A DNA stretch of 29,349 nt from an uncultured Spirochaetales bacterium (GCA_964387575.1 CAYLZA010000001.1:1-29349), one strand, 5' to 3'; positions 7,623 to 28,571 are shown, counted from the stretch's first letter. Notes: generated from the sequence alone by a model not told the origin. Numbers and translations: made by a program.

Positions 7623-9730
7623 CGTTTTATATCGAGAATTGTAAGCTGAATGTTTTCGCGGTTCTGGAAGTAGTTTCGTCCGAGCCTGAACGCGATATCA
7701 ACCGTATCGTTGAGAGCAAAATCCTTATTGACTCTGTCGGCACTGTTCCAGAACACCGCAGGCCATTTGTGCTTCCCCGAATCTATAAGCAGACGCAGGT
7801 GACTGGGATCTTTACGGCCGATGATTTTCATCTCAACGATCTTTGCACGCCGGAGCACGAACACAAGCGGTGGATTCGCCTCTCCGAACGGAGCGAATCG
7901 TTCTACGACATCGATGAGCTTGGGCGTCATGTACTGCTGCGGGAGCTCGGCATCGATCTGTACGAGCAGTTGCTCATCGTCTCCCATCTCGAGGTTTTCG
8001 GCGAGCTCGAATAACCGCTTCTGAAACCGTTCATAATCCTCGAGCTTCATGCTGTAACCGGCGGCATAATCGTGTCCACCGTAGTCAACAAAAATATCGG
8101 AAAACGAATCGAGAAATCGTTTGATATTAATACCTTTTACGCTTCTCGCCGAACCGACGGCCCGTCCCTCCATCAGCGAAACCACCATCGCCGGTGCGTT
8201 GAAGTACTTTGAAAGCCTCGATGCGATTATTCCGGTTATGCCACGATGGATGGTATTCCCTCCCACCTGGATCAAACGTCCATCGGTGTCGCTATAGCTT
8301 TTTTTCGCTTCCGAAAGAACCGACTCCCAGGCATGTTCCCCGAGGCGTTTCCTTTCGTTGTTGAGCCCGAGGATCTCATCAACCAGAGACATTCGTTCCA
8401 CTTCATCCTCGCAGAGGAAAAGCTCCACCGCCTTGTTCGGCACTCCGAGACGACCGGTGGCGTTGATGAGCGGAGATATCTGCCAGCTGATATCGGTGGT
8501 ACTGATCCGCTTTCCGGACAAATTCGTTCTCGTAATCAGATCCCTGATCGCGCCTCGCGGATTGTCGTTGATGCGCTCTAATCCGACATTCACGAGAATT
8601 CTGTTCTCATCCTGCAGCGGCATCAAATCCGCCAGCGTCCCTATCGCGACCAGATCGAGACAGGAGCGAAATCCTTCGGAGATACTCTCCTCGCTTTGTA
8701 CGAGATACGAAACAAACAGCCGTTTGAGTACATCGATCTCGGTCCCGTTCCCGTCGTCATAGCGGGTGATTTTCGGCGTCGTGCTCATCCGATACAGACT
8801 CATCTCACCGAGCGAGGGAAACACCCGCTGGATATCGGGTGCGATATCCGTCACACCGATCTCGGCTTCCGGACCGAAAATCCGTCTGAGAAGCTTCAGC
8901 TGCGTTGCCTCGTCGTATACGAATATCTCTCTGCCCGATAAAAAGTGTCCGAGTCTCGTCTGATCGATTCCTACCATCCCCGGAACGATGTTTTCCGTTA
9001 TTCGATCAACCTCGACGAGATTCGTAAGCAGCACAGCCTCGAGCACGAGCGTTTCATTCCCGGGACGAACATTGAGGAGACACACCGTACGGTTATACAG
9101 GGGTAGTTTCGAAAACTGCAGCGCCCATATCACTTTCGAAGTGACACCACACCCGGCAAGATCCCGAAACGGATATCCCGATTCGGAAACCTTCGGATTG
9201 ATCACCGCATAAGCGTCGGGCAGCACTTCCTGCGGATTGTGATGATCGATAATAATCGTATCGATACCACGTTCGAGGGCGTAGGAGACCTCGTCGTGAT
9301 TCGAAATACCGCAGTCAACGGTAATCATCAACGAACCATCGGCAGCCGCAAGCTCGTCTATCGCCTCGGTCGTAAGCCCGTATGGATCATCGCCTTGCGG
9401 GACGTACCACTGCGTTTCGATTCCGAAATCGCGCAGCGCCTCCACCATGAGAACGGTGGAGGTGATCCCGTCGGCGTCTCTATCCCCGAAAACCGCCGCC
9501 CGTTCCTCTTCGTCTCGAGCTCGTGTGATCCGGTCGATGACGTCTTCCATTTCGATGAATTGAAACGGATTGTGAAGATGGACGATATCCTTTTCGAGAT
9601 AGTATTTGACCTGCGACGGTTCGGTTATTCCCCGCCGGACGAGAATCGATGCCGTCAGCAAACCGACCCCGTACCGTGCTGAAATCGATCGTACTTCATC
9701 GCGGTCGATTTGCTCTTTGTGCCACTCCAT
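7619..9730 (-). CDS. recJ: Single-stranded-DNA-specific exonuclease RecJ with an ~130-aa internal insertion
   Basis: DHH-family motifs FGDRDADG, TVDCG, IDHH, GTLAD, INATGRLG, GSARS, GGHDYAAG, PFGEANP. Start placed at ATG 9730 (MEWHKEQID). Confidence 0.95.
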   Translation of the reverse strand: MEWHKEQIDRDEVRSISARYGVGLLTASILVRRGITEPSQVKYYLEKDIVHLHNPFQFIEMEDVIDRITRARDEEERAAVFGDRDADGITSTVLMVEALRDFGIETQWYVPQGDDPYGLTTEAIDELAAADGSLMITVDCGISNHDEVSYALERGIDTIIIDHHNPQEVLPDAYAVINPKVSESGYPFRDLAGCGVTSKVIWALQFSKLPLYNRTVCLLNVRPGNETLVLEAVLLTNLVEVDRITENIVPGMVGIDQTRLGHFLSGREIFVYDEATQLKLLRRIFGPEAEIGVTDIAPDIQRVFPSLGEMSLYRMSTTPKITRYDDGNGTEIDVLKRLFVSYLVQSEESISEGFRSCLDLVAIGTLADLMPLQDENRILVNVGLERINDNPRGAIRDLITRTNLSGKRISTTDISWQISPLINATGRLGVPNKAVELFLCEDEVERMSLVDEILGLNNERKRLGEHAWESVLSEAKKSYSDTDGRLIQVGGNTIHRGITGIIASRLSKYFNAPAMVVSLMEGRAVGSARSVKGINIKRFLDSFSDIFVDYGGHDYAAGYSMKLEDYERFQKRLFELAENLEMGDDEQLLVQIDAELPQQYMTPKLIDVVERFAPFGEANPPLVFVLRRAKIVEMKIIGRKDPSHLRLLIDSGKHKWPAVFWNSADRVNKDFALNDTVDIAFRLGRNYFQNRENIQLTILDIKR

Positions 9731-9743
9731 TTTGTTGTGCCGT

Positions 9744-9772
9744 AGTGTACATGGGAGTCGACGGCCCGTCAA
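9744..9772 (-). promoter_or_regulatory. Sigma70-type recJ promoter
   Basis: TTGACG (9772-9767), 17 nt, TACACT (9749-9744), 13 nt before the ATG at 9730. Confidence 0.6.
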
Positions 9773-9846
9773 ATCGAATCGTCGGGAAACGGCTTCGAGG
9801 CGTTTATGGGCGCATAGTTATCCAAAATCCGTAACCAGATTTTGAA

Positions 9847-10416
9847 TTACTGGTCCGTCGGGGCGCTATTCGCCGGGAATGACCGTTCAAAGAGACGGTC
9901 GTATATTGCTCCCTGCGGAGTAAGCGTGGAGCGGAAAGCCACGATAGATTCGATGGGAAACGCAATATCGATCTTTACATGCTCGAGCGAATCGTCGAAA
10001 GCACGGGAAATCCGCTTTTTTACCCGCGCGATCGTAACGTGCGGTGTAAACTTGTTGTTTTTCTTCTGCATGTACGGTCTGATTGTTTCTGCGAGCTTCC
10101 GGTGAAGCTCGGTCGTTGCTTCTGCACCATCGTCGAGCGGTGCATACACAACGCGTGGAGGGCCTTTATGCGGAAATTTCCCGAGACCGGTGATACGTGC
10201 TTCGTAACACCCAACGGAAATATCGACTTGTCGTAAAGCCGATGTGAGTTGCTCCACATCCGACTCCCCGGTTTCGCCGAGAAAAAACATCGTAATATGA
10301 TATGCCTCCGGCTTCACCCATTTGAGGTCGGGGTACTCGGATCGAAGGTTCCGTGTTTCGCGATAAAGCTTGTTCCGTGCGGCTTCCGGCAACGGGATAC
10401 CAATAAATGCTCTCAT
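9847..10416 (-). CDS. thpR: RNA 2',3'-cyclic phosphodiesterase (2H phosphoesterase, 2'-5' RNA ligase family)
   Basis: MRAFIGIPLP start, two HxT motifs (YHITM, PHVTIARVK), SxLTPQGAIY; GGAGG SD. Confidence 0.92.
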   Translation of the reverse strand: MRAFIGIPLPEAARNKLYRETRNLRSEYPDLKWVKPEAYHITMFFLGETGESDVEQLTSALRQVDISVGCYEARITGLGKFPHKGPPRVVYAPLDDGAEATTELHRKLAETIRPYMQKKNNKFTPHVTIARVKKRISRAFDDSLEHVKIDIAFPIESIVAFRSTLTPQGAIYDRLFERSFPANSAPTDQ

Positions 10417-10441
10417 ACAACCTCCATGAGGGATAATATAC

Positions 10442-11203
10442 TTACAGCAATCCGCCGGAGCTCCTTACCGTCGACAAGGGTTTCTCGATAATTCCCTGAA
10501 CAATTCTGATAAGCGACGTTTTCGCGCCTTTTCTCGATCGATCATCCAACGATACGGTAAGAGCCTCATTCATTCTCATATGCTCGGTGTGAACAAGGTA
10601 AGCTCGCGCTCCCGCGCTCAGCAACGACGATTCCGGCGACTTGCAGGAGCCGCAGGTTACAACTCCGCCGTTCGAAACATAGAGATGGTCCTTTTGACCG
10701 ACCCGCTTTCCACACATTGAGCAATGAGCCAGCTCGGGCGGGTATCCGATAACCGTCAAAAAACGAAAGAGCGATTGCGTCAAAAGATAGTCGCATTCGG
10801 TATCATCTGCACGCTCGAGAAGCGCAAACGCATTGAGCAGCGTACCGTGAAGCCTTCGATGCTCATCACCGCCCGCGTAGGTTTTGAGTACCACTTCGCA
10901 CAGCAGCGAAGCTGCGTAATAACGTTTTACGTCGTTTCTGATTTCCGTGAAAAACGATATCGGTTCGGCGTCCGTAAGTTTGTAGTTTTTCTTTACCGGT
11001 TCATAGTAGAGGTGAGCCGTGATCCGTCCAAACGGATCACTCACTCCGGACAATTTGCTCCTGGATTTGTAAGCCCCGTACGCCACGGCATCGATAATGC
11101 CGAGCTCAACGGTGAGTAGGGACAAACGTTTGTGATACTCACCGAAACGCGCAACCCGAAGAACAATTGCGTCGGTCGTCATGTAACGTGACACAACGCT
11201 CAT
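10442..11203 (-). CDS. recO: DNA repair protein RecO
   Basis: TDAIVLR...GEYHKRLSLLT..LG...A.GA.KS.SKL; C-terminal Zn finger CSMCG...VTCGSC. Start placed at ATG 11203; the ORF track extends to 11278. Confidence 0.92.
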   Translation of the reverse strand: MSVVSRYMTTDAIVLRVARFGEYHKRLSLLTVELGIIDAVAYGAYKSRSKLSGVSDPFGRITAHLYYEPVKKNYKLTDAEPISFFTEIRNDVKRYYAASLLCEVVLKTYAGGDEHRRLHGTLLNAFALLERADDTECDYLLTQSLFRFLTVIGYPPELAHCSMCGKRVGQKDHLYVSNGGVVTCGSCKSPESSLLSAGARAYLVHTEHMRMNEALTVSLDDRSRKGAKTSLIRIVQGIIEKPLSTVRSSGGLL

Positions 11204-11355
11204 GATATGACGTCGTCGGCAAAAAGAAAACCATATGTCCTTTCCGCCCTCCCACCCAAGTTGAAGATCCGATGGCATTTTAGTACTTTACAGCTACAAC
11301 TCAAATTAGTGAGATAACAATTAATATGGAACACGAAAAGTCAAAAAGGATTATT

Positions 11356-13713
11356 ATGCCCGGGAACCAACTCATTCCTGCAGACCAGATGCTTCCGGGC
11401 AAGCTCCTGATACTCCCGCTGACCGGACGCCCGCTCTTTCCCGGGATTTTTACTCCGCTGGTTGTCGCGGACGAAGCCGGAATGAAGCTGATTGATCAGG
11501 CGATGTCTTCGACCAATATGTTCGGCGTCGTTCTGACAAAAGAAGCGGATATTGAAAATCCGACTGCGGACTCACTCTATCATGTAGGTACCGCGTGCAA
11601 GATTGTCCGAAAAATCAACCTTCCCGACGGCGGAGTCAACATTTTTGTCTCCACTCTCAAGCGGTTCCGGGTGGCGAAATTTATTTCGCAAGAACGGCCG
11701 ATCTCCGCCGCGGTCGAATATCTCGACGACGAAACCGAGGACACCGACGAAGTAAAGGCGCTCACCCGTTCTCTGATTTCGGAGATGAAACAGCTTTCGG
11801 AGAACAACCCGCTTTTTACCGAACAGATGCGTCTTGATATGGTCAACATCGACCAACCGGGCAAAATAGCGGACTTTATTACTTCGATTCTGAATATCGA
11901 CCGTGATCAACAGCAGCACGTGCTCGAAACGACCAATGTGCAAAATCGAATGGAGCAGGTGCTTGTTCATATCAAACGGGAACAGGAACTGCTGAAGATA
12001 CAGCAACGTATTCAAAATCAGATCAATGAGAAAATCGAAAAAAGCCAACGAGAGTACTTTCTCAAAGAACAGCTGAAAGCGATCAAACAAGAGCTCGGAA
12101 TGCCGGTAGACTCGAAGAGCAGCGAGTATCAGCGCTTTAAGGAGGCGATTGAAGAGCTCGGTCTGTCTGGAGAGGTCAAGGAACAGGTAGAGGAAGAGCT
12201 CGAGAAGTTCTCGCTTATGGATCCGAATTCGTCGGAGTTTATCGTAACGAGAAATTACCTCGAGACGATCATCTCTCTTCCGTGGAAAGAGCCTGCGCCG
12301 GAGGAGTTCGAGCTCGAAGAGGCACAGAAGATCCTCGACGCAGATCACTACGGGCTCGAGGATGTAAAAAACAGAATCGTCGAGTTTCTCGCCGTACGAA
12401 AGCTGAAAAAGGATTCAAAAGGATCGATCGTGTGTCTCGTCGGGCCGCCGGGCGTAGGGAAGACTTCGGTCGGGAAATCGATTGCCCGCGCTCTCAACAA
12501 GGAGTTCTTTCGGTTTTCAGTCGGCGGAATACGCGATGAGGCTGAAATCAAGGGACATCGGCGGACCTATGTGGGAGCAATGCCCGGAAAAATCTTACAG
12601 GGTTTGAAGCTGGTAAAAAGCAAAGATCCGGTGTTCATGATCGATGAAATCGACAAGCTCGGGGTATCGTTTCAGGGAGATCCTTCCTCGGCATTGCTCG
12701 AGGTGCTCGATCCCGAGCAGAACGTTGCATTCAGGGATCACTATCTCGATCTCCCGTTTGACATCTCCAATATTCTTTTCGTTGCGACGGCGAATACGCT
12801 CGACACGATACCGCGTCCGCTGATCGATCGAATGGAGATAATCCATCTACCAGGTTATATCGACGAAGAGAAAATCGCGATTGCCACAAAATATCTGGTT
12901 CCGAAATCGCTCGAACGCGCCGGGCTCAAGAAGAGCAAAGTTCGTTATACGAAAGCGGCGCTCCGTGCGATTGCCAACGGGTATGCCCGTGAAGCGGGTA
13001 TGCGGACATTCGAGAAAAACCTCGACAAAATCCACAGAAAACTCGCCAGAAAGCTCGTTCTCGAAGAGAGCACGGAGGCGATTTCCATCAAGCCGGAATC
13101 GCTCGAGGAATACCTGGGACAGCCGATTTTTCGTCATGAAAAACTCGCGGCACCGATAAGACCGGGAATGGCAGTCGGTCTGGCGTGGACCAATTTCGGC
13201 GGCGATGTGCTCGTAATTGAGGCGGTGCACAACACCGGCAAGGAAAGTTTCCGCCTTACCGGGCAGATGGGCGAAGTTATGCAGGAATCGGCGAATATTG
13301 CATATACCTACGTGCGTCATATTGCAGAATCGTACGGCGCGAGTCAGGAATTTTTCGAGGAGAATATTATTCACCTCCACATTCCCGCAGGCGCAACACC
13401 GAAAGATGGTCCATCGGCAGGAATTACCATGGCTACGGCACTCTTATCGCTGGTTACCAACAGCAAGGTGCGCAAAAACGTTGCGATGACCGGAGAGCTT
13501 TCACTGATCGGCTCGGTACTTCCGATCGGAGGGCTCAAAGAAAAAACAATAGCCGCGCGAAGAAACTCGATAAAAACGATTATCATACCGAAACAGAACG
13601 AGAAGGATCTGGAAGACATCCAGGATCATGTTAAAAAAGGTATCGAGTTCAAACCGGTTGAAACGATGGAAGAAGTTATAGAGATTCTCTTTCCCGCATT
13701 GAAGAAAACCTGA
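11356..13713 (+). CDS. lon: ATP-dependent protease La (Lon)
   Basis: Walker A GPPGVGKT, Walker B MIDEIDK, GHRRTYVGAMPG, catalytic Ser PKDGPSAG and Lys GGLKEK. AAGGA SD favours ATG 11356 over 11326. Confidence 0.97.
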   Translation: MPGNQLIPADQMLPGKLLILPLTGRPLFPGIFTPLVVADEAGMKLIDQAMSSTNMFGVVLTKEADIENPTADSLYHVGTACKIVRKINLPDGGVNIFVSTLKRFRVAKFISQERPISAAVEYLDDETEDTDEVKALTRSLISEMKQLSENNPLFTEQMRLDMVNIDQPGKIADFITSILNIDRDQQQHVLETTNVQNRMEQVLVHIKREQELLKIQQRIQNQINEKIEKSQREYFLKEQLKAIKQELGMPVDSKSSEYQRFKEAIEELGLSGEVKEQVEEELEKFSLMDPNSSEFIVTRNYLETIISLPWKEPAPEEFELEEAQKILDADHYGLEDVKNRIVEFLAVRKLKKDSKGSIVCLVGPPGVGKTSVGKSIARALNKEFFRFSVGGIRDEAEIKGHRRTYVGAMPGKILQGLKLVKSKDPVFMIDEIDKLGVSFQGDPSSALLEVLDPEQNVAFRDHYLDLPFDISNILFVATANTLDTIPRPLIDRMEIIHLPGYIDEEKIAIATKYLVPKSLERAGLKKSKVRYTKAALRAIANGYAREAGMRTFEKNLDKIHRKLARKLVLEESTEAISIKPESLEEYLGQPIFRHEKLAAPIRPGMAVGLAWTNFGGDVLVIEAVHNTGKESFRLTGQMGEVMQESANIAYTYVRHIAESYGASQEFFEENIIHLHIPAGATPKDGPSAGITMATALLSLVTNSKVRKNVAMTGELSLIGSVLPIGGLKEKTIAARRNSIKTIIIPKQNEKDLEDIQDHVKKGIEFKPVETMEEVIEILFPALKKT

Positions 13714-18254: not shown

Positions 18255-18824
18255 TTACACTCGACGGACGTCGATCGTTTCGGGAATCGTACACTCCCCG
18301 TCCCGCAGAAGCACGTAAGGATGCTGCGTCACATCGAGAATCGTCGATGGCTTTCTATCAGGGAGCGTGCCCGCGTCGACGATGAGATCCACCGATCGTC
18401 CGAACACGCGTGAGATCTCTTCGACGCTTTTCAATGGAGGCTCACCGCTACGGTTAACGCTGGTGGAATAGATCGGACCGACGGACCTGATGACGTCGAT
18501 TAGAAACGCGTCGTCCGGCACACGAACCGCTCGTGCCCCTGATCCCACCGGGATGATGAGCGTAAGCGGTCCGGGCCACAAGGACAAAAGCTCAATTTCG
18601 ATGTTTTCCGACGACATCTTTTTTACCGATTCAGCTGATTCGACCAGCGTAATAAAGCGTTTTTCCGAAGGTCTGCCCTTTATCCGGGCGATTTTCTCTT
18701 CAGTTCCCGGTGCAATACCGACGAGACCGTAAATCGTATCACACGGAAGGACCGCGACACCGCCCTCTTTGAGGATTCGGGCGATGTGGGAGATGCTATT
18801 TTCACTTTCGACGGGAATTACCAT
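18255..18824 (-). CDS. tsaC: L-threonylcarbamoyladenylate synthase, stand-alone YrdC/TsaC type
   Basis: VLPCDTIYGL, IKGRP, WPGPLTLI, AVRVP, STSVNRSG, PSTILD; start at ATG 18824 or TTG 18833. Confidence 0.92.
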   Translation of the reverse strand: MVIPVESENSISHIARILKEGGVAVLPCDTIYGLVGIAPGTEEKIARIKGRPSEKRFITLVESAESVKKMSSENIEIELLSLWPGPLTLIIPVGSGARAVRVPDDAFLIDVIRSVGPIYSTSVNRSGEPPLKSVEEISRVFGRSVDLIVDAGTLPDRKPSTILDVTQHPYVLLRDGECTIPETIDVRRV

Positions 18825-19239
18825 AACCAACAAATGTCAGCAACACGTACAGCGAAACGGCAACGATACACCCGATTAATCTGAAGAATGCATCCTCGGT
18901 TCCCTTCGCATTATACGATTTGATCATTCTCCCGAGTGTCCGATGAAGTGAAGCATCCGATTGATTCGGCGTGAATATTCGAACTTCATTTGGTTTAAAA
19001 TACCCAATGCTTCGTGCCCGAAGTACGATTTCATCCGCCTCCGACAGGAGCATATTACGTTTTTCGCGGAGCTCTTCGCCGATCGCCTCCAGCTCAGCGA
19101 CATTCCGTTCCAGCTCGCTTTTATGCTGCATTATATCTCTGTATGCAAAAATACCGGCATCTCCCCATAGAAGCAACATACACTCATACACAAAAAAACC
19201 GACATATATGGATAATGCGATACGGAGTCCGGTTTTCAT
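18802..19239 (-). CDS. Septum formation initiator family protein (FtsB/DivIC-like)
   Basis: Single N-terminal TM, WGDAGIFAY, coiled coil, then ARSIGYFKPNE..IF (typical AR.LG...E.E motif); extra C-terminal hydrophobic helix. Confidence 0.8.
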   Translation of the reverse strand: MKTGLRIALSIYVGFFVYECMLLLWGDAGIFAYRDIMQHKSELERNVAELEAIGEELREKRNMLLSEADEIVLRARSIGYFKPNEVRIFTPNQSDASLHRTLGRMIKSYNAKGTEDAFFRLIGCIVAVSLYVLLTFVGYGNSRRK

Positions 19240-19356
19240 ATTTCAAGTTACGGCCTCGGCATCCGATTTCTTTAGGAGGTACGTCGAAGATTATGGAAAG
19301 CATGAACAGTACATTTGATGTATCTTTTTGCTTTTCATAAATTTATCAACGCGGCA

Positions 19357-19385
19357 TTGATTTTTACCGACAATTACAGTACTGT
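19357..19385 (+). promoter_or_regulatory. Possible sigma70 promoter of the acidic-protein operon
   Basis: TTGATT (19357-19362), 17 nt, TACTGT (19380-19385); the -10 overlaps the palindrome ACAGTACTGT. Confidence 0.4.
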
Positions 19386-19409
19386 GAATCATAGACTCGG
19401 GAGTTGCGC

Positions 19410-21962
19410 ATGGCCACTAATCCGGAAACTTTGTCCAGCGAGAAAGATCGGGGGCACCACCTGACATCCGAAAACAATGCTCTTAACAATAACGATGACG
19501 ATCTCGAGCAGTACGGTGTGTGGGTAAAAGTAGGTCCCGAGGATGTAGAGGAAGAACCTCCTGCTGAGGATTTCGAGCTCGAGAGCCTGCAACCCGATAT
19601 GGGTGAAAGCGAGGGCCTCACCGAAGAAGAGGAACAATTGCTTGGAGATCTCGAACAAAACGAAGAGCAGGACTCAGAAGAATCGAGCTCAATCGAAGAT
19701 ATCGATCTTTCTGATGATTTTAGTCTCGATGATACCGAAGATTTGTCGACATCCGCCGACCTCGATCTGGAAAAGGGACAGGAATCGGAGGATCTCGACG
19801 AAATAGATATCGAGGATGCCGGCGAAGAAGATTCGCTCGAAGAGCTCGATATAGAAGAGCCCGACGAAGAGCAGTCTCTCGAAGAGTTCAGCCTCGACGA
19901 TGTTGACGATTCCGAATCTCTTGACGATTTTGGTGACGAAGAAAGCGGGGAGACCGACACATCTACTCAGCTGAACACCGCCGCGGCGGATATTGAAATC
20001 GAAGATCTCGGGGACATCGATCTCGATGAGGATTTCCCCGAGGAAAGCGAAACGGACGAAGAATCTGAAGAGGAAGCTACATCACTCGAGTCACTTGAAG
20101 AAGAGGTATCTCTCGAAAGCGACGACGAGGATATGGCATCGCTCGAGGAGCTGCCGGATCTCGATATGGAAGAAGAGCTTCCTGAGCTCGATGATCTTGA
20201 AGAGCTCGATCTCGAAGAAGAATCATCAGAGCCCGAGGGAGAACCGGACGAACAGTCCGAACCTGAAGAGCTTCAGGGCGAAGAGACAACGGAAGAAGAA
20301 TCATCGGGTGACACAGCCGAGGAAATAGAGAGTCTTGAAATTGAGGAGAATGACTCCTTGCCGGGTGCCGATGAGGATCTCGATGATATCGATCTCGAAG
20401 AGCTCAAACAATCCGATTTTGGCGAAGACCTGGCGGAGCTCGAAATAGAACAGGATGAGATTTCCGATGAAATAGAGAATATCGACTTGGACGATGAACC
20501 GGAAGAGATAGAAGAGCTCGTTGAAGAGTCGGCTTCGTCTTCGGAAGATACGGATACCGAAGACGATTTGGAAGAGCTTACCGCCGACCTGGAGGAAGAG
20601 GAAGTTCCCGAGGCTGAGGAATTATCAGACGATACAGATACGGACGATTCGGATATCGATGATCTCGCCGCGCTGGAAGAAGAAATACTCGCCGACGAAG
20701 CCGAAGACGCGGAGAGCGATATGTCTTTTGCAGCTGATGTCGAATCGGACGAAACGCAGAATCTCGATATAGAGGATACCGATACGTTGAGCAACGAAGA
20801 AGAATTTGCAGACACCGTAACAGAAGAACCCTCGGGTGAAACATCGGAGACGCTCCAGAATATCGAACGCGAGTTACATGCAATACGCAATGAGCTGTCC
20901 TCGCTCAAGTCTGAGCTTGCATCGTTTCGCTCAACGGCTCCGAAAACGACTGAACAAACCGGAGAAGAACCGGAGCAAACCGAATCAGCCGGATTCTTCG
21001 ATGAAGACGAAGATGAAACAATCGCTCTAACCGGCGATGAGCTCGATAATATACTGAATACCGCAGACATCACCGAGGAAACCGAGGGAGAATCCGAGGT
21101 TCCCGAAGAAGATGATCTGCTTGATGATCTTCTCGAAGATATGGATTCCGAGGGCGAAACCGAGGAAGAAACCGCCGAGAGCGAGACCGAAGAGTTTGAT
21201 ACAACCGGATCCGCTCTGACCCTCGAGGAGGAACTTCAGGAGTCCGGCGGCGAAGAGGAACCGGAAACGTCGGAGAGTGACGAAATCGATTTTTCGTTTG
21301 ATCAGGAGCCTGAAACTGCAACGGAAGAAGCGCAGACGTCGGCGGAAGATATCGAAGAACCTGACGAGCTCGAGCTTGACTCAGTTATTGGTGAAGGTGG
21401 AGACGAAGAAGAGCTTCTCGGAAAAGAGAACATCATACCGATGGATGAAACCGAGGAGACAGCAACCGAAGAGGCTTTTGATACGACCGAAGATACCGAG
21501 GAAGCACCCGCCGCCGAATCGGAGGGTGAAGATATCGATCTCGAATCGGAAGCAGTGGATATTCCGGTCGACACCGATATAGAAGAGACTGAAGAAAGCA
21601 GCGAGACCGACACGGAAGAAGAGGAAGAGATCGTTCTCGAGCCGTTTGCCGAAGAAGATGATGAAAGCGAATCGATCGACGAAATCGAGCTCGACATCGA
21701 GCCGACGGAAGAGGAAACCGAGGAAGTCGAATCCTTAGAGGAAGCGGCGGAAGAAATGTCCGACGAGCCCGAACGGCACTCCTCCGACTTGCAGGAAAGA
21801 GAGGATATTCCTGACGACGTACGGGAAGAGCTGAAAACCGTACTGTCATATCTCGACCGGCTTCTCGAATCGCTTCCGGACGAGAAAATCCAGGAGTTTG
21901 CTCGTTCCGAACATTTTGAGGTGTACAAACGGCTTTTCGAGGAACTTGGTCTCGAGACGTAA
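19410..21962 (+). CDS. Large, extremely acidic low-complexity hypothetical protein with ordered N-terminal, central and C-terminal islands
   Basis: Open 851-codon frame; GGGAG SD 6 nt before ATG 19410; roughly 40% D+E by eye, no Cys, one Trp; non-repetitive segments DDLEQYGVWVK, LQNIERELHAIRNELSSLKSEL, FFDEDEDETIALTGDELDNIL and a helical C-terminus. Confidence 0.88.
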   Translation: MATNPETLSSEKDRGHHLTSENNALNNNDDDLEQYGVWVKVGPEDVEEEPPAEDFELESLQPDMGESEGLTEEEEQLLGDLEQNEEQDSEESSSIEDIDLSDDFSLDDTEDLSTSADLDLEKGQESEDLDEIDIEDAGEEDSLEELDIEEPDEEQSLEEFSLDDVDDSESLDDFGDEESGETDTSTQLNTAAADIEIEDLGDIDLDEDFPEESETDEESEEEATSLESLEEEVSLESDDEDMASLEELPDLDMEEELPELDDLEELDLEEESSEPEGEPDEQSEPEELQGEETTEEESSGDTAEEIESLEIEENDSLPGADEDLDDIDLEELKQSDFGEDLAELEIEQDEISDEIENIDLDDEPEEIEELVEESASSSEDTDTEDDLEELTADLEEEEVPEAEELSDDTDTDDSDIDDLAALEEEILADEAEDAESDMSFAADVESDETQNLDIEDTDTLSNEEEFADTVTEEPSGETSETLQNIERELHAIRNELSSLKSELASFRSTAPKTTEQTGEEPEQTESAGFFDEDEDETIALTGDELDNILNTADITEETEGESEVPEEDDLLDDLLEDMDSEGETEEETAESETEEFDTTGSALTLEEELQESGGEEEPETSESDEIDFSFDQEPETATEEAQTSAEDIEEPDELELDSVIGEGGDEEELLGKENIIPMDETEETATEEAFDTTEDTEEAPAAESEGEDIDLESEAVDIPVDTDIEETEESSETDTEEEEEIVLEPFAEEDDESESIDEIELDIEPTEEETEEVESLEEAAEEMSDEPERHSSDLQEREDIPDDVREELKTVLSYLDRLLESLPDEKIQEFARSEHFEVYKRLFEELGLET

Positions 21963-23027
21963 ATGGGGCTTCTGGACAAAGCACGACGGAATACGGGATC
22001 GGAAACCACCGTATCCGAACCAACAAGTGATCCACGCCTAAAAAAAAAGAGCTTCCACGCAAAAGATGAAAGGGACCAATCGGGTATTCTGAAAAAGAAG
22101 TCCGATCAGATTCTCGTCGAACAGCTTGTCAACAATCTCGCGGCCTATCATCGCGATCTCTCTTTTCCGCTTCCGGTTTTTCGGGCGATCGTTGATTCCA
22201 TCGATCTCGACGCGGCCGCGTTTCTTTTCGCAGACGCCCCCGGCGGTTACTACATACCCGTAGCCTCGGTTGGTTTCGATGTAACATCACGGCGACGGAT
22301 GCACATACCGTTGCAGTTGCTCGATCAGAATCATCGCTTGCTCGATGGTTGTTATATGCATGTCGGCCGCGACGGCCTGACATTTCTCGAACAATTTTTT
22401 TCGATTCGGGAATACGGGATGCTCGAGGAAATTGTTTTTGTTCCGTTTAATCACGAGGGGACGCCTTTCGCGGTACTGTTGATCGCCTACCATATCGAAC
22501 ATACCCGGTCGATAGAGCGTGAAGCCGATCTTGCTCAACAGATTGCACAATCGTTGAGCAAAGACCTTTACGAAGCCCGCGTACGTAAGATGCACAATCT
22601 GCCGGTACATGAAGAAGATGAAGCGGATACGGGTATAGCCGATCTTGTTTCGCGTGCGGATCGAGATCAAATGCGATTACTCACGGCCATATTCTCCCTT
22701 GCTGGTCTGATTGAGTCGATTGTTCCGGATCATGAATTTGCGGATACATATCTGTTTCGCACTGATCTCCTCAGAATATTCAAGTCCTTTATTTCATCAA
22801 ACGGCTGTCTGGTATCGCTTGGCGACGATACGTTTGTCCTGTGCATCCTGACACGAAGCGTGTCGGACGAGCATTTTATCCTCTATCATATCGGGTTAAG
22901 CCTCCAGCGTTTCTACTCACGATCCCTCGATTTTCCCTTGGTTGTTGATACGGTTCTCTACTACCCCGACGACGTCTCAAGCGTAGACGAGCTTTTTTCC
23001 AAGCTGGGTGTAGAACGTGAACAATGA
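21963..23027 (+). CDS. Hypothetical protein: basic N-terminal tail, GAF-like domain, possible degenerate GGDEF-like C-terminus
   Basis: Starts directly after the upstream TAA; AAAFLFAD...YYIPVASVGFDVTSRRRMHIP...VFVPF...FAVLLIA reads as GAF-like; C-terminal VSLGDDTFVL only weakly recalls GGDEF. Confidence 0.6.
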   Translation: MGLLDKARRNTGSETTVSEPTSDPRLKKKSFHAKDERDQSGILKKKSDQILVEQLVNNLAAYHRDLSFPLPVFRAIVDSIDLDAAAFLFADAPGGYYIPVASVGFDVTSRRRMHIPLQLLDQNHRLLDGCYMHVGRDGLTFLEQFFSIREYGMLEEIVFVPFNHEGTPFAVLLIAYHIEHTRSIEREADLAQQIAQSLSKDLYEARVRKMHNLPVHEEDEADTGIADLVSRADRDQMRLLTAIFSLAGLIESIVPDHEFADTYLFRTDLLRIFKSFISSNGCLVSLGDDTFVLCILTRSVSDEHFILYHIGLSLQRFYSRSLDFPLVVDTVLYYPDDVSSVDELFSKLGVEREQ

Positions 23028-24571
23028 TCGAAGTTCATTCCACCCGTTCCGGTAAGAAAACGGCCTCCATCCACGGTAAAGCCCTTCACTCAGCCTATGA
23101 TCCGGAAACGCAGGCTCGTCGGTACGTAGAACGCAGCTTAACCGAGGCGCAACCCTCGGTTGTGTTGATCATTGGTGAGTGCATGGGGTACGTATCCAAT
23201 GCCGTCAAGGATGCATTGCCGAGCACGAAGATCATCGCGTTTTATCTCGATTCACAGCTCAGACCTCACACCTGCCAACACGACGGGAGTATGTGGTTTC
23301 CGGATTCCAGGATGTCGCCGTTTGAGTATCTTCGCTCGCTTCTCTACGAGCAGGAGGCGGAAGGGCTTAAAGTTCTCGAATGGGCGCCGGCAATGCGGGT
23401 GTGGACCGATAACGCGTCGCTGGTCGCACAAGCGATCGGCGATATTATTCGAGAGCTCACCGGGAATATTGCTACGACAACGGGATTCGGGCGTATTTGG
23501 CTGTCGAACGCAATAAGAAACAGCCTGGAGCTCCCTGAAACAATGTGTTCGTTAAATCAAGGAGGCACTGTATTGATCGCCGCATCGGGTCCGACTTTGG
23601 GCAAAACGCTTCCCTATATTAAGGAATACCGAAATCGATTCGAGCTTTGGGCACTCCCTTCGTCGCTACGATCGCTTGTCTGCTACGGTATCGAACCCGA
23701 TCTCGTTGTGACCACGGATCCCGGATTTTATGCATCGCTTCATTATCGATATCTCCCGGAGACACCCGTTCCGACGGCGTATCCACTGACGGCGGCGTCA
23801 CGGATTCCGACCAACGGAAGAGACGCGATCCTGCTCAATCAGAACAGTTTTTTCGAAAACAGCATTCTCCGAGTCATCGATACGCACGCCTGCCCCGTGC
23901 CTGCAAACGGAACGGTCGCGGGTACCTGCCTTTTACTGGCTCATGCCTGCGAAAAACGGGTACTATACGCAGGACTGGACTTCGTCGGAGACGATATCAG
24001 AAATCACGTTCAACCGCACACGTTTGACGAGTTGATCCGTGAGACTTCTGAACGAATCCGTCCGCAGACGAGCATCCTGTATGAGCGATTCCACCGGATG
24101 AATCCGATTCAAATCACCGACCGGGCATATACAACGAGGGCTCTTCGAACGTATGCTTCCTGGTTTGATCGATATGTGAACAAACACGACGATCTCGACG
24201 TCTACAGGTTACTCTCCTCCCCGTTCCATCTCGATTCGGTAATTGATATTGACGAAAGCGATATACAATCTTTTTTGTCGAATTTACCTGACTCATCGAC
24301 AGGTATCGGTATACGAAGAGCAACACCGGGTCGTGAGAACGTTCGAAGCGGTCTTTCGGATCTGGTAAACAACTGGATACGCACACTCTCCCGTGAGAAC
24401 ACGGAGTACCGGAACACCCGACAACAGTTGCTCTATCTGCTCGAAACTCGGGCAATACTCGACGCAACCGAGATCCGACGAAGAGGATGTACAGAGGAAG
24501 CCGATAAACGTGAACGCGATGCGGTCGAGTCGGCGGTGGATTTTCTCCAATCGCTCAGTATGATTCTGTAA
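23024..24571 (+). CDS. Maf/DUF115 (MptE-like) family protein, paralog 1, divergent motifs
   Basis: ALHSAYDPETQA, WLSNAIRN, LIAASGPTL, PDLVVTTDPG, GTVAGTCL, YAGLDF; ATGA overlap with the upstream gene. Confidence 0.75.
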   Translation: MIEVHSTRSGKKTASIHGKALHSAYDPETQARRYVERSLTEAQPSVVLIIGECMGYVSNAVKDALPSTKIIAFYLDSQLRPHTCQHDGSMWFPDSRMSPFEYLRSLLYEQEAEGLKVLEWAPAMRVWTDNASLVAQAIGDIIRELTGNIATTTGFGRIWLSNAIRNSLELPETMCSLNQGGTVLIAASGPTLGKTLPYIKEYRNRFELWALPSSLRSLVCYGIEPDLVVTTDPGFYASLHYRYLPETPVPTAYPLTAASRIPTNGRDAILLNQNSFFENSILRVIDTHACPVPANGTVAGTCLLLAHACEKRVLYAGLDFVGDDIRNHVQPHTFDELIRETSERIRPQTSILYERFHRMNPIQITDRAYTTRALRTYASWFDRYVNKHDDLDVYRLLSSPFHLDSVIDIDESDIQSFLSNLPDSSTGIGIRRATPGRENVRSGLSDLVNNWIRTLSRENTEYRNTRQQLLYLLETRAILDATEIRRRGCTEEADKRERDAVESAVDFLQSLSMIL

Positions 24572-26196
24572 TGACGATGGCCAATACCGTTCTTTCGCGA
24601 AACATTGAAGCGCTGAAAAAACGTCATTCCCGACTTGCAAACGAAATCTCCCGTACTCGTCCGTCGGACCGGATTTCGATCCTCCAATCGAGAAGCGAGC
24701 TTACGGTCCCGGCGGTAAAAACCGCGACAGGCGACAAACCGCTCCATTCGAGGGTCGATCCGATTCGCGAAGGAAGACGGATGTTTGATTCGACGTTAAA
24801 GGACGAGTGCCCCGGCTTCGTCGTAGCGCTCGGCGTGGGTGGTGGTTATCAGATGAAGCCGTTGATTGAGTCGGATTGGGTCGTCTCGGTTGTCATCGTT
24901 GAAACGGATCTTCGAGCATTTCGGTCAATACTCGAACATGTCGATTTGAACTGGCTTTTTGATGATTCACGGGTTTCGATCTTTGTCGAGGAGTCGCTGA
25001 GCACGATTTCCGGATTCATCGGCGGCTCCTATCATCCGCTTATTCACGATAGCTACGCTCTTTACCCTCTCAGAAGCCGGATGATCCACGATGACGCCTG
25101 GTTTTCGAGTTGCCTGCACATGCTCGAGGAGACACTTGAACGAATTTCGTGGGATATGTCGACACAATCCCGGTTCGGCCGCATTTGGTTCCGCAATACG
25201 GTGTATAACCTCACATCACTCCCGTTCTCCGAACAGTCTCTTCCCGAAATTCGCAGCGCGGTCGTCGTTGCCGCAGGGCCTTCGCTCGAAGATACGGTGT
25301 CCGACTTACGGAGCGCAAAAGACCGGCGAACGATAATCGCTGTAGACACGGCGGCACCCGCACTTGCCGTCCACGGCATAGTTCCCGATATCGTCGTCAC
25401 AATCGATGCACAACTCGTCTCCTACCACCACGTATTTGCTCCACTACCGGCACAATCGCTCCTGGTTGCCGACTTGTCGGCGTCGAGGGTCGTCGCTCAT
25501 CGTGCCGGCCGTCGGGTATTCGTGAGCGGGGGCTTTCCTCTCGGCCGCTATTTTGCGAAAGAGTGGGAGAGCTCCTGGATACCAACGATCGACACAACCG
25601 GTTCGAACGTGACCTATGCCGCCGTCGATCTGGCGATTCGTCTCGGAGCCACTCAGATTGATCTCGTGGGGGCGGATTTCTCGTATCCACGAGGAAAACC
25701 GTATTCGCGCGGGAGCTATATATATCCGTTTTTTTTGAGTACATCATATCGTACACAACCGGTGGAAACGCTTACGACCAATCTGGTATTCGGCTCCCAA
25801 AACGCTCGCGTCGCAGCTTCGGACGGTACGGTACGCTACATACCGAAAAAAATGGAGCGGTACCGGGAAGCTCTTGAATCACTTCTCGGGCGATTCGAAC
25901 AGTCTCGTCTGGCCGTAACGGATCATATTCGCAATCGACTACCGATACAACCGAAACAGGTCGAACAAACCCTGATCCGATATAATGAAACTCTCACGGC
26001 TTTGCCGCGCCCCGTGGACCCTCTCTACGGATATATACAAAAGTTGAGCGCAGAGGAACGGGCAGTTCTCAATACGCTGTTTCCCACCGCGCTTCATTTA
26101 CACAGACGTGCGCATCAGACCCCGGCTCAAGTCCTGGAGCACTCACGCCGCTGGGCGGTAGATCAAGTGACCGCATCGTTAGACGGATTTTCATAG
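24571..26196 (+). CDS. Maf/DUF115 (motility-associated factor, putative nonulosonic-acid glycosyltransferase) family protein, paralog 2
   Basis: PLHSRVDPIREG, VALGVGGGY, WFRNTVYN, VVVAAGPSLED, IAVDTA, PDIVVTIDAQ, GSNVTYAAVDLAIRLGA..I.LVGADFSY; TAATG overlap. Confidence 0.82.
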   Translation: MTMANTVLSRNIEALKKRHSRLANEISRTRPSDRISILQSRSELTVPAVKTATGDKPLHSRVDPIREGRRMFDSTLKDECPGFVVALGVGGGYQMKPLIESDWVVSVVIVETDLRAFRSILEHVDLNWLFDDSRVSIFVEESLSTISGFIGGSYHPLIHDSYALYPLRSRMIHDDAWFSSCLHMLEETLERISWDMSTQSRFGRIWFRNTVYNLTSLPFSEQSLPEIRSAVVVAAGPSLEDTVSDLRSAKDRRTIIAVDTAAPALAVHGIVPDIVVTIDAQLVSYHHVFAPLPAQSLLVADLSASRVVAHRAGRRVFVSGGFPLGRYFAKEWESSWIPTIDTTGSNVTYAAVDLAIRLGATQIDLVGADFSYPRGKPYSRGSYIYPFFLSTSYRTQPVETLTTNLVFGSQNARVAASDGTVRYIPKKMERYREALESLLGRFEQSRLAVTDHIRNRLPIQPKQVEQTLIRYNETLTALPRPVDPLYGYIQKLSAEERAVLNTLFPTALHLHRRAHQTPAQVLEHSRRWAVDQVTASLDGFS

Positions 26197-27011
26197 AGCA
26201 CGCCCGCATACCCTACAAACGAGTCCGACGGATGAACATCCTTGCTTGTTCGATAGTCGATCAGTTTCCCTCGTCTTACCCCCGCCGCCTCGGAAAACGA
26301 AAGCGCACACACCGCAGCCCCGGTGGAACAGGCGGCCTTGTTTCGTGTACCGTGCTCGAGTGCCGCCTGCGCATCGAGCGCGCATAGTGCATCAACGAAT
26401 TTCGCATCGTTTTCATTGCGGACCCACTCGTATGCGTCGCTCCCCGTGCCTTTGGGGGTGAACCCGTACGCTGGACCATAATGCGTGAGATCGGTCGATC
26501 CGATGACCGCTATCGAGTGACCCGATTTGGTGAGATCATGGAGATAACGGCCTAATTCGACGGCGCGCCTACCCGGAGCAATTCGAACACCAACGACACG
26601 TATTTCAGGGGCGGTGTATTTAACCAGCGGGAGTTGTACTTCCACGGTATTATCCGGTTTAGAGTCGGGCTGTGCTGCGAAACGTTCGATTATCGCATTA
26701 CGCACACTCACATCAGCTGAAAGATTACCGATGGGTGTCTCAAATGCATCCTCCGGATACACGAGAAGCGTGTCGCCCGGCGGCAGATGACCGCCGCACA
26801 CCACACAGGTGGATATTTCCGGTGAAAGCTCGCGAAGTACCGAAAGCGCAGTTCTGCCCGAAAACATCCAGCCCGCGTGCGGCACGATCCCGGCGATACC
26901 GCTCGAACGCGATTCTTCCAGATCGCGATCCCATTCGTCGAGTATTCTTCTGGTTTCCTCGTAAGATTTCGGATACCACCCTGCAGGCAAAATCCTTTTT
27001 CGAATGTTCAT
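26163..27011 (-). CDS. MEMO1 family protein (AmmeMemoRadiSam system protein B-like)
   Basis: AGWYP, IVPHAGWMFSG, FETPIG, TVEVQLP, GSTDLTHYG, AACSTGA, FVGYAG; GAGGG SD. Confidence 0.9.
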   Translation of the reverse strand: MNIRKRILPAGWYPKSYEETRRILDEWDRDLEESRSSGIAGIVPHAGWMFSGRTALSVLRELSPEISTCVVCGGHLPPGDTLLVYPEDAFETPIGNLSADVSVRNAIIERFAAQPDSKPDNTVEVQLPLVKYTAPEIRVVGVRIAPGRRAVELGRYLHDLTKSGHSIAVIGSTDLTHYGPAYGFTPKGTGSDAYEWVRNENDAKFVDALCALDAQAALEHGTRNKAACSTGAAVCALSFSEAAGVRRGKLIDYRTSKDVHPSDSFVGYAGVLYENPSNDAVT

Positions 27012-27137: not shown

Positions 27138-28571
27138 ATGGGGAGAAAGATAATCCAGGCGTTTTCGCTTTTCAGCATCGCGGTATTTGTCTTTATCATT
27201 GTATGGTTTGTCTTCAGAGCCATCAATACTCGTTCCGCGAATATCGAGCAGTCGGAGCAAAAAACCGAGCAAATCAAACAATCGATCATATCGTCGGTGT
27301 TGGCGGGAGGCGGATTTGACTCGAAGCAGACATCTCGGACCATTGCGAGCTCGTTTCAACAAAATCCGGATCTGAAGCTGCTTGCAATACACGATGTGGA
27401 AGGAAGATTGGATTATCTGTACGCAGTTTCGAATGCTTACATCCCCAAAGATACCGAGCTCGGCGGAGATCGTCTTCTCCTTCCCGAGCTCCGTCACAGT
27501 GGTATCAGCGAAGAACAACTCGATACGCGGATGGTCTTTCCGGACAATTCGGTTCGGTCGATAACTACGATTCATAGGGTGCTCGACCGGGCGGACGTAT
27601 TTCCGATAATTCGTGAAGTTCTCATCGCGCTTCTTTCGTTCCTTCTGATAACCGCAGTTATGATAGTCGTTTTTCCGTATATCGAAAAAAAACGATCGGG
27701 AGCAGATATTTCGGGTGCCGCCGCCGCAACGGAAGCACCCGACGAGCCGTTCACTCCATCGGATACCGGAATCGGTTCGGAGCACGGGGATATCCCGGAA
27801 GATACAACGCGTTTTCGCGGAGAGCCCGGCGGCGATATCGACGGCACTCTAGATATCGAAGAACAGGCTGCGGTCGAGACGCCGGTCACGAACAGCGCCG
27901 ACCAATCCGGAACGACCGTGGCCGAGAAAGCGTTCGAGACGCCGGTCGAGGCAACAGGCGAACCACCTTCCGACCGACCGATCGAACAGCCGGCGGCGAC
28001 GGCAGCCGATACGGAGACAGGGGAACACACTCAGGAACACTCGCCGGCACTGGAGTCACACGATGAGTCTATTGAGTCTACTCGCGGGCTCTACTCTCCG
28101 AACAGCGAGCTCGGATGGGAAGAGTATCTCGAGGAGAGACTGAATACGGAGCTCAAACGGGCGGCATCGTTTGATCAGGATCTGGTTTTGATGCTGATCT
28201 CGGTTCCCTGGGCGCGTCGAGGAACACAGGAGTACGTTGCGGTAGCCGAAATGGTGCGGGAGTACTTCGCGTTTCGCGATCTCTGCTTCGAATACGGCGA
28301 AATTGCATTTGGCGCGATTGTCCCTAACGTAGAGCTCGATCAGGGAATGGAAAAGGCGCAGGAGTTCAGAGAAATACTGCTCCCGCGTGCGGCTAAGGAC
28401 ACGACTCCTTCAATAGGATTGAGCGCGCGAAATGGTCGTTTGATGAGCGGGATGCGGCTTATCAGAGAAGCAGACCGGGCGCTCGTTCATGCCCGTGACG
28501 ATGATGACGGAATCGTCGCTTTTCGCGTTGACCCCGAAAAATACCGTTCATATATCGCGTCAAAGAGCTGA
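27138..28571 (+). CDS. Two-TM membrane protein with an extracytoplasmic domain, acidic linker and degenerate GGDEF-like domain
   Basis: TM1 FSLFSIAVFVFIIVWFVF, TM2 VLIALLSFLLITAVMIVVF; C-terminus LEERLNTELKRA...LVLMLI...RDLCFEYGEIAF...SIGLS...LIREADRAL..AR follows the GGDEF fold pattern. Confidence 0.75.
   Translation: MGRKIIQAFSLFSIAVFVFIIVWFVFRAINTRSANIEQSEQKTEQIKQSIISSVLAGGGFDSKQTSRTIASSFQQNPDLKLLAIHDVEGRLDYLYAVSNAYIPKDTELGGDRLLLPELRHSGISEEQLDTRMVFPDNSVRSITTIHRVLDRADVFPIIREVLIALLSFLLITAVMIVVFPYIEKKRSGADISGAAAATEAPDEPFTPSDTGIGSEHGDIPEDTTRFRGEPGGDIDGTLDIEEQAAVETPVTNSADQSGTTVAEKAFETPVEATGEPPSDRPIEQPAATAADTETGEHTQEHSPALESHDESIESTRGLYSPNSELGWEEYLEERLNTELKRAASFDQDLVLMLISVPWARRGTQEYVAVAEMVREYFAFRDLCFEYGEIAFGAIVPNVELDQGMEKAQEFREILLPRAAKDTTPSIGLSARNGRLMSGMRLIREADRALVHARDDDDGIVAFRVDPEKYRSYIASKS

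Follow-up and report, generated by a model that had tools for sequence, protein, structure and literature searches.

A hyperacidic member of the spirochaetal TP_0179 family (PF27359) as a candidate scaffold of the flagellar system

Here we analyzed an 850-residue hyperacidic protein encoded in a 29,349-nucleotide stretch of DNA from an uncultured Spirochaetales bacterium (GCA_964387575.1, CAYLZA010000001.1:1-29349; "the window" refers to this whole stretch). Our preferred interpretation, to which we assign a probability of about 0.5, is that this member of PF27359 (TP_0179) is a cytoplasmic, disordered, multivalent scaffold of the spirochaete flagellar system. The long polyanionic chain would act as a flexible spacer, and short, near-invariant modules set along it (YGVWVK, a heptad coiled coil with a probable role in dimerization, FF-acidic-IALTxDELDNIL, and a C-terminal three-helix domain) would each hold a partner, the whole gathering late flagellar factors beside the flagellar machinery. 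The candidate client common to all lineages is the GAF/GGDEF-like regulator; depending on the lineage, Maf flagellin glycosyltransferases or FapA would join it. Such a layout would work like that of HubP/FimV or PopZ, but in a protein that is soluble and unrelated to them in sequence. We favor a flagellar role over general pole organization because the gene appears to head a coupled operon behind a sigma-28-type promoter. The family has so far been catalogued only as a domain of unknown function, and the setting described below gives it a concrete context: putative sigma-28 control, a phylum-wide pairing with a GAF/degenerate-GGDEF protein, lineage-specific linkage to Maf or FapA, and a universal linear motif present in 1 to 13 copies.

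The open reading frame (ORF) has two candidate starts (19404/19410..21962, plus strand), of which the ATG at 19410 is the likely start codon because a GGGAG Shine-Dalgarno sequence precedes it. Glutamate makes up 28.5% and aspartate 14.7% of the product (together 43%), against 2.4% lysine plus arginine (20 residues), and the computed net charge is -346 with a pI of ~4.05. Seventeen of the 20 basic residues fall within the N-terminal 40 residues, the coiled coil (487-512), or the C-terminal 62 residues; only K122, K333, and K672 lie inside the acidic tracts. The maximum 19-residue Kyte-Doolittle mean is 0.23, and therefore neither a transmembrane segment nor a signal peptide is predicted. In the charge-hydropathy plot of Uversky (mean absolute charge, 0.41; scaled hydropathy, 0.37 versus a boundary of 0.56) the protein lies deep in the disordered region, and it is predicted to be almost wholly disordered. 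A first-pass annotation, made from the sequence alone, had described a ~850-residue hyperacidic protein with K and R nearly absent from its acidic tracts, without signal peptide or transmembrane segment, and carrying four ordered islands; each of these features held up, the islands being found at the coordinates it gave.

The acidity does not derive from DNA tandem repeats, since a tandem-repeat search of the gene returned only two 12-nucleotide, 2-copy arrays. Long Ser-rich ORFs on the antisense strand are a by-product of GAN-rich codons, and the reading frame is validated by the hundreds of homologues that share it. The acidic character is far beyond chance, and the protein is genuine. By C-domain profile, its gene is present in a single copy in the source genome, a 3.4-Mb, 83%-complete metagenome-assembled genome (MAG) from a microbial mat; the sequencing runs listed with the stretch are four DNA runs of one microbial-mat study, with no RNA run among them.

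The first-pass annotation had missed the protein's membership of a catalogued family. A search with the last 66 residues returned 136 proteins of 467 to 1488 residues, and all 120 listed carry a precomputed match to PF27359, which is named TP_0179 in contig annotations; Atlas clusters likewise bear the name "TP_0179 domain-containing protein." A profile (A1) built from the C-terminal 55 residues of 32 of the homologues matches the window at 21798-21956 (E = 4.9e-32) and 2253 clusters (50% identity; library of 1.84 billion representatives), and in all 150 clusters listed the domain stands at or near the C-terminal end. The 80 named genome loci all come from spirochaetes (Alkalispirochaeta, Sediminispirochaeta, Spirochaeta, and Treponema), and the domain was found in 253 of 299 high-quality Spirochaetota genomes. 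On these matches, PF27359 appears to be restricted to the Spirochaetota and widespread there, although it was not found in two families (f5 and f6, with small multi-replicon genomes, probably Borreliaceae). Neither the whole protein nor any of the islands gave a meaningful match in Pfam or NCBIfam, the Pfam copy scanned being one that predates PF27359; in Pfam the whole protein matched no family at E <= 0.01, and the C terminus matched only HrpJ and DUF7880 at E > 0.06.

The orthologue in a Treponema pallidum-like genome (G088; 1.14 Mb, single contig) anchors this assignment. It lies at ~198 kb, in agreement with the position reported for TP0179 (PMC8789261), and encodes 627 residues with CGVWVK, a coiled coil, ETIALTNDELNNIL, and the C-domain, in the gene order divergent DivIC, orthologue, GAF-like gene, Maf, Maf. 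The window protein shares with it the C-domain, the central IALTxDELxNIL motif, the coiled coil, the N-terminal GVWVK, and the operon, and by their motifs and gene order the two are orthologous, the window protein being more acidic (43% versus 19% D+E) and longer (850 versus 627 residues). TP0179 and TP0178 are unmentioned in 200 supplementary files of the T. pallidum two-hybrid interactome paper. The window protein is a genuine, ordinary member of a catalogued yet uncharacterized family that spans most of the phylum and occurs in relatives of the bacteria that cause syphilis, periodontitis, and leptospirosis.

What the family conserves appears to be its modules, not its charge. Across homologues the N-terminal motif, the central motif, and the C-domain hardly vary; the spacing between them, in contrast, runs from ~130 to 940 residues and D+E content from 19% (the T. 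pallidum-like protein) to 43% (the window protein); the pattern of conserved islands joined by length-variable linkers that the first-pass annotation had anticipated is what we observed. The N-terminal motif, [YF]G[VIL]W[VIL][KR], stands near the N terminus of nearly all full-length homologues matched by the C-terminal search, with L[ED]xYGVWVK.GPED as its extended family form. Among the deep lineages sampled it is absent except in the T. pallidum-like genome (CGVWVK). We considered YGVWVK as a Maf-binding module and rejected it, as five deep-lineage loci have Maf downstream yet lack the motif. The coiled-coil helix has an unbroken a/d heptad (L482, I485, L489, I492, L496, L499, L503, and F506), and an equivalent helix stands 20 to 60 residues N-terminal to the central motif in most of the homologues listed. 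It probably gives dimers, and oligomerization, if any, would more plausibly proceed through it than through the C-terminal domain.

The central motif takes the family form GFF-(D/E)5-ETIALTGDELDNILNTAEFTE, with the core FF-acidic-IALTxDELDNIL or, more broadly, IAL[ST]xDELxNIL. Of 186 homologues with 450 residues or more, 178 contain it exactly once, at positions ranging from 134 to 938, and together with the C-domain the motif persists in most deep lineages, where it sometimes stands at the extreme N terminus. Some relatives carry multiple copies: 13 in a Leptospira-like locus (L086), 13 in L114, and 4 in L098. The L086 homologue (Leptospira-like genome G097, 9083-12049, minus strand) is a 988-residue protein with a 41-residue repeat (SFEAEDxNEPIALSxxELGNLLSSENEEPVDSSLGFEPExx), ~8 in tandem, as well as dispersed motif copies; downstream of it lie a gene for a 757-residue GAF protein and one for an MBOAT acyltransferase. 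The C-terminal domain has the ~50-residue consensus LP..LK.EI..VL.YMDQLLESLPEEKI.EFA.SEHFEVYK.LFEELGL, with 16 invariant columns across the 32 diverse homologues of the profile, and its AlphaFold2 model is a plain three-helix unit (predicted local distance difference test score [pLDDT], 84).

The link to the flagellum begins with the promoter. Among 65 orthologous upstream regions, CCGA[TC]A is enriched ~25-fold at positions -60 to -21, being present in 49 of them against 1 to 4 per 20-nucleotide bin elsewhere, and TTAA stands 16 nucleotides upstream of this -10 element. The resulting consensus, TTAA-N16-GCCGATAA, lies 20 to 60 nucleotides before the ATG in ~50 of the 65 regions, and the putative promoter in the window is in the same register. 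In type, the family motif is the same as the mapped sigma-28 promoter of Treponema denticola flaB2, with -35 TTAA and -10 CCGATAA (PMC9481697). FliA is encoded in the genome, and the region upstream of the genome's own flaB (...TCCGACAATTATTACAG) has the extended -10 element CCGACAATTA in common with the window, which lends partial support to a sigma-28 reading. By these motifs, the promoter in front of the operon is of sigma-28 type, the class that serves late flagellar genes such as flaB. The MAG (G000; C26, L091-L093, and C307, L090) also contains at least three flagellin-N genes and a FliD-like gene, the latter preceded by GTTAAG-N16-ACCGATAAAG, another sigma-28-type site. A genome-wide scan with the -10 element alone was too noisy to define a regulon (123 matches, mostly inside genes).

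Downstream, three genes follow in close order, and the junctions TAA-ATG, ATGA, and TAATG are the reason for regarding the acidic-protein gene as the first of a translationally coupled operon that encodes, as read from the sequence, the acidic protein, a GAF plus degenerate-GGDEF protein, and two Maf proteins (Table 1). The AlphaFold2 model of the second product (354 residues; pLDDT, 88) comprises a GAF domain plus a GGDEF-like domain, and Foldseek gave full-length matches to the GAF-GGDEF cyclase Dcsbis (4zmu) and the cyclic di-GMP receptor PelD (4etx), along with many GAF domains at template-modeling scores of 0.6 to 0.7. It has no Pfam GGDEF match and no conserved GGDEF signature, and the only columns at least 90% conserved in its family (G104, D106, and S147) are all in the GAF half; homologues from deep lineages show Pfam GAF_3 plus a sub-threshold GGDEF match. 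As modeled, then, the protein is a GAF fold followed by a GGDEF-like fold without the catalytic signature. The two Maf paralogues are only distantly similar to each other; Maf_flag10_N is found only in the second, and the MptE-like score is 1.5e-29 for the second versus 2.5e-13 for the first.

Maf is found downstream in 79 of 84 related loci and in the T. pallidum-like genome. In a survey of 24 deep-lineage loci from different families of the phylum, a homologous GAF-(degenerate) GGDEF gene lies 0 to 45 nucleotides downstream in 15, Maf downstream in 6, and FapA (PF03961) in 5. The GAF/GGDEF-like protein appears from this synteny to be the constant operon partner, with a third gene that is lineage specific (Maf, FapA, or neither) and flagellum related in every case where it can be named. 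In one genome (G293), fliM follows ~2.8 kb downstream of the gene pair, in the same orientation, and a single gene separates them. That locus (L114, on G293:C5, 2706-8924) comprises the homologue with 13 motif copies and its GAF/GGDEF partner, then a gene for a 338-residue signal-peptide protein, then fliM; in the Leptospira-like genome G097 (L121) the same signal-peptide gene precedes fliM, and TP_0179 is elsewhere, adjoining the ATP synthase operon.

Table 1. Features of the acidic-protein locus and its surroundings in the window
Feature	Coordinates	Strand	Details
DivIC/FtsB-like septum protein	18802-19239	-	divergent from the acidic-protein gene
Sigma-28-type promoter (predicted)	19346..19373	+	-35 TCAA (19346-19349), 16-nt spacer, -10 ACCGACAA (19366-19373), 37 nt before ATG
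Shine-Dalgarno sequence GGGAG	19399..19403	+	6 nt 5' of ATG 19410
Coding sequence, 850-aa hyperacidic protein, PF27359/TP_0179 member	19410..21962	+	stop TAA 21960-21962
N-terminal motif DDLEQYGVWVKVGPEDV	19497..19547	+	aa 30-46; DDLEQYGVWVK = aa 30-40 (19497-19529)
Second short motif LTEEEEQLLGDLE	19617..19655	+	aa 70-82; recurs in many homologues as L(I)TEEEExLLGELE
Heptad coiled-coil helix LQNIERELHAIRNELSSLKSELASFR	20853..20930	+	aa 482-507 (L482-R507), read from sequence
Central motif GFF-DEDEDE-TIALTGDELDNILNTADITEE	20991..21080	+	aa 528-557; most widely conserved linear motif of the family
Island FFDEDEDETIALTGDELDNILNTAD	20994-21068	+	aa 529-553, within the central motif
Central-motif peptide			DEDETIALTGDELDNILNTAD
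C-terminal 55-aa three-helix domain	21795..21959	+	defining domain of PF27359; helical end aa 800-848
GAF + degenerate GGDEF-like protein	21963..23027	+	354 aa; TAA-ATG junction, zero gap after the acidic-protein gene
A9 homopolymer in 5' part of GAF gene	22040..22048	+	77 nt into the gene; in frame
Maf/MptE-like paralogue 1	23024..24571	+	515 aa; ATGA overlap with the GAF gene
Maf/MptE-like paralogue 2, with Maf_flag10_N	24571..26196	+	541 aa; TAATG overlap
Memo-like protein	26163-27011	-	after the Maf pair
477-aa protein	27138-28571	+	after the Maf pair

Several points weigh against the flagellar-scaffold interpretation. The promoter in the window differs from the consensus at two -10 positions, and the -35 of the genome's own flaB is out of register, with TCAA 4 nucleotides further upstream. 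Synteny and a shared promoter motif point to co-regulation and not to binding. Leptospira-like genomes keep the acidic protein and its GAF partner with Maf elsewhere in the genome; therefore Maf cannot be a universal client. In a Brachyspira-like family (f24), Maf is present in all 34 genomes and a detectable C-domain in only 3 of the 34. The C-domain has no recognizable fold relative that would point to a partner: Foldseek against the PDB gave no match at E <= 0.001, and the best hit of a wide VIA-align search had a Z score of 4.8, all rows being generic helical ones. Finally, the literature on TP0179 covers only recombination and selection of a "hypothetical protein."

Two further comparisons bear on the partners. 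Maf was not found in exactly families f5 and f6 (0 of 9), which are also those without the C-domain; this co-loss amounts to a single event and is therefore weak evidence for a link between the two. A complex prediction of the C-domain plus central motif with the GAF/GGDEF-like protein returned "no support" (score, 0.01), a result that counts neither way.

Other features of the neighborhood deserve mention. The 5' part of the GAF gene contains a homopolymeric A run; a run of at least 9 A's is found at the same place in 44 of 81 orthologous loci, the mode being exactly A10 (34 loci), and in many A-run loci the long ORF starts only 270 to 390 nucleotides after the TP_0179 stop (loci L005-L084). 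In the window and in L005, its closest relative, the run is A9 and keeps the frame. The conserved A10 run would be compatible with a frameshift or slippage site. On the other side of the acidic-protein gene, the divergent arrangement with a DivIC/FtsB-like gene is common to the window, L002-L004, and the T. pallidum-like genome, and the cell-division neighbor is therefore also conserved in this class. Beyond the Maf pair lie a Memo-like gene and a gene for a 477-residue protein that matches no Pfam family and has one predicted membrane helix (residues ~156 to 187). By tblastn, relatives of the 477-residue protein are found downstream in 40 of the 84 related loci and relatives of Memo in 37; the conserved block therefore extends past the four-gene operon.

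One alternative, close to what the first-pass annotation proposed, is a polar organizer of the PopZ or HubP type whose helical parts drive self-assembly at the poles, perhaps into a condensate, whose acidic region recruits clients, and which serves the pole in general. A short motif at the N terminus, a disordered acidic body, and a helical end would suit such a protein; the conserved heptad coiled coil could drive self-association; and the operon partners are of kinds reported for HubP, whose FimV domain binds an inactive GGDEF domain (PMC9061725) and which recruits FapA (Park 2019, as cited in PMC8789113). The divergent DivIC/FtsB-like division gene and the "FimV" label on some homologues could be read the same way. 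However, the protein lacks every domain that defines HubP/FimV or PopZ, and the putative sigma-28 promoter and the Maf, FapA, and fliM neighbors point to the flagellum specifically. We rejected the "FimV" label, whose defining features are absent and which was applied automatically, probably driven by composition. On balance, we regard a general polar organizer as unlikely, though a real contender.

A different possibility arises from the central motif, which aligns in register with the N-terminal peptide of FliM and FliY (LSQDEIDxLL) as L-[ST]-x-[DE]-E-[IL]-D-x-[IL]-L, with TG and N replacing SQ and A/Q. In this scheme the motif would mimic the FliM/FliY peptide and bind phosphorylated CheY (CheY-P), and the protein would be a docking platform that buffers, sequesters, or relocates chemotaxis output. 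By hhalign against FliM/FliY N termini, the best local alignment places LSQDEIDaLL on ALTgDELdNIL (14 columns; P ~1e-3). The pattern L[ST].[DE]E[IL]D.[IL]L has three matches in the 3.6 million six-frame residues of the genome, namely, the acidic protein and the N termini of FliM (which begins MNEVLSQDEIDQLL) and FliY (which begins MSDGSLSQDEIDALL). The deep-lineage variants IALSKDELDDIL and ISLSDDELENIL are closer still to FliM. That no other linear feature of the family is as widely conserved, that the copy number of the motif varies, and that one gene pair lies close upstream of fliM would fit as well.

Several considerations nevertheless count against CheY docking. The pattern was written post hoc, with both sequences already known, and a protein with 43% acidic residues offers easy matches to D/E/L-rich motifs. 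By hhalign the probability is just 22%, and reciprocal hidden Markov model (HMM) searches were negative in both directions: an HMM of the FliM motif ranks the acidic protein 801st, and an HMM of the central motif ranks FliM ~4900th and FliY ~6200th. Moreover, the FliM motif is N-terminal and free, whereas the one described here is internal. We therefore consider docking of CheY-P by this protein rather improbable. More speculative still is an extended version in which the universal IAL[ST]xDELxNIL, in 1 to 13 copies, captures CheY-P in the manner of FliM, while the C-domain and the GAF/degenerate-GGDEF partner tie that signal to second-messenger sensing, Maf, and FapA; we would call this a long shot. 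Were it true, spirochaete cells, with motors at two poles far apart, would have in this protein a cytoplasmic hub that could shape motor switching or bias it in space, and docking of CheY by the motif would bear on the old question of how motors at opposite ends of the spirochaete cell are coordinated.

A nonspecific polyanion without particular partners, serving as a Mg2+/Ca2+ buffer, an "entropic bristle," or a chaperone for basic proteins, would account for the extreme charge and the strong disorder prediction, and it may seem apt for a protein from a microbial-mat metagenome whose acidity is the highest among the 186 family members sampled. The range of acidity within the family argues against it, however, since the modules stay near-invariant in proteins as little acidic as the T. 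pallidum-like one, and conservation of the operon and promoter points to a specific pathway. The cation buffer or chaperone that the first-pass annotation had offered as an alternative leaves three near-invariant short motifs unexplained, and we hold this explanation to be very improbable.

Least credible of all, in our view, is export of the protein as a late flagellar substrate through type III secretion to the periplasm, where the polyanion would act around the periplasmic filament. In known late substrates (flagellin, FlgK, and FliD), the export chaperones FliS, FlgN, and FliT bind the C-terminal region, and the conserved amphipathic helices at the extreme C terminus of the acidic protein, its almost wholly unfolded chain, and its sigma-28-type promoter would be in keeping with this; but the constant partner is a GAF/GGDEF protein of cytoplasmic type, Maf enzymes act in the cytoplasm (10.1101/2023.12.03.569772), purified T. 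denticola flagella list other components (PMC13439194), and an 850-residue chain with a charge of -346 is an unlikely secretion substrate.

If the flagellar-scaffold interpretation is correct, spirochaetes own a soluble counterpart of the HubP/PopZ class that serves the periplasmic flagellum specifically. Since both T. denticola and Leptospira biflexa can be manipulated genetically, a knockout is feasible.

It is instructive to set the protein beside the systems that it most resembles. Like HubP/FimV, it has a large acidic cytoplasmic region carrying partner-binding modules (by prediction here) and a small helical C-terminal domain, and TP_0179 operons encode the same two client types that are reported for HubP, a degenerate-GGDEF protein and, in some lineages, FapA. 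Unlike HubP/FimV, it lacks LysM, a transmembrane helix, the FimV/TPR C-terminal domain, and any sequence similarity; no FimV/TPR model appeared up to E = 10 in NCBIfam and Pfam scans of residues 780 to 850. It is, moreover, predicted to be soluble and under sigma-28 control, and it is restricted to the Spirochaetota. Its 43% D+E recalls the D/E repeats of HubP, but the window protein has no tandem repeats, though Leptospira-like relatives do carry repeats of the motif. Like PopZ, it is predicted to be soluble and cytoplasmic, with a short interaction motif near the N terminus, a disordered acidic linker, and a C-terminal end made of helices; it has no match to Pfam PopZ/DUF2497, however, is ~5 times longer, and contains an additional internal coiled coil and a conserved internal motif. 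The first-pass annotation had called the protein analogous but not homologous to these hubs, and the absence of any Pfam or NCBIfam match, LysM domain, or transmembrane segment agrees with the second half of that statement. As to the first half, the layout and the operon partners, akin to HubP clients, speak for it, the shared client types giving a hub-like reading indirect support, while the sigma-28-type promoter places the protein in a flagellar context and not in that of general pole organization; narrowed to the flagellar system, the analogy seems reasonable but unproven. The last comparison is with GlfM, the specificity factor of Maf-2 flagellin glycosyltransferases (10.1101/2023.12.03.569772). 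GlfM is a small four-helix bundle, whereas TP_0179 is a large disordered polyanion whose link to Maf is not universal; yet both would be cis-encoded, nonenzymatic helpers beside maf, proposed to bridge Maf and its substrate.

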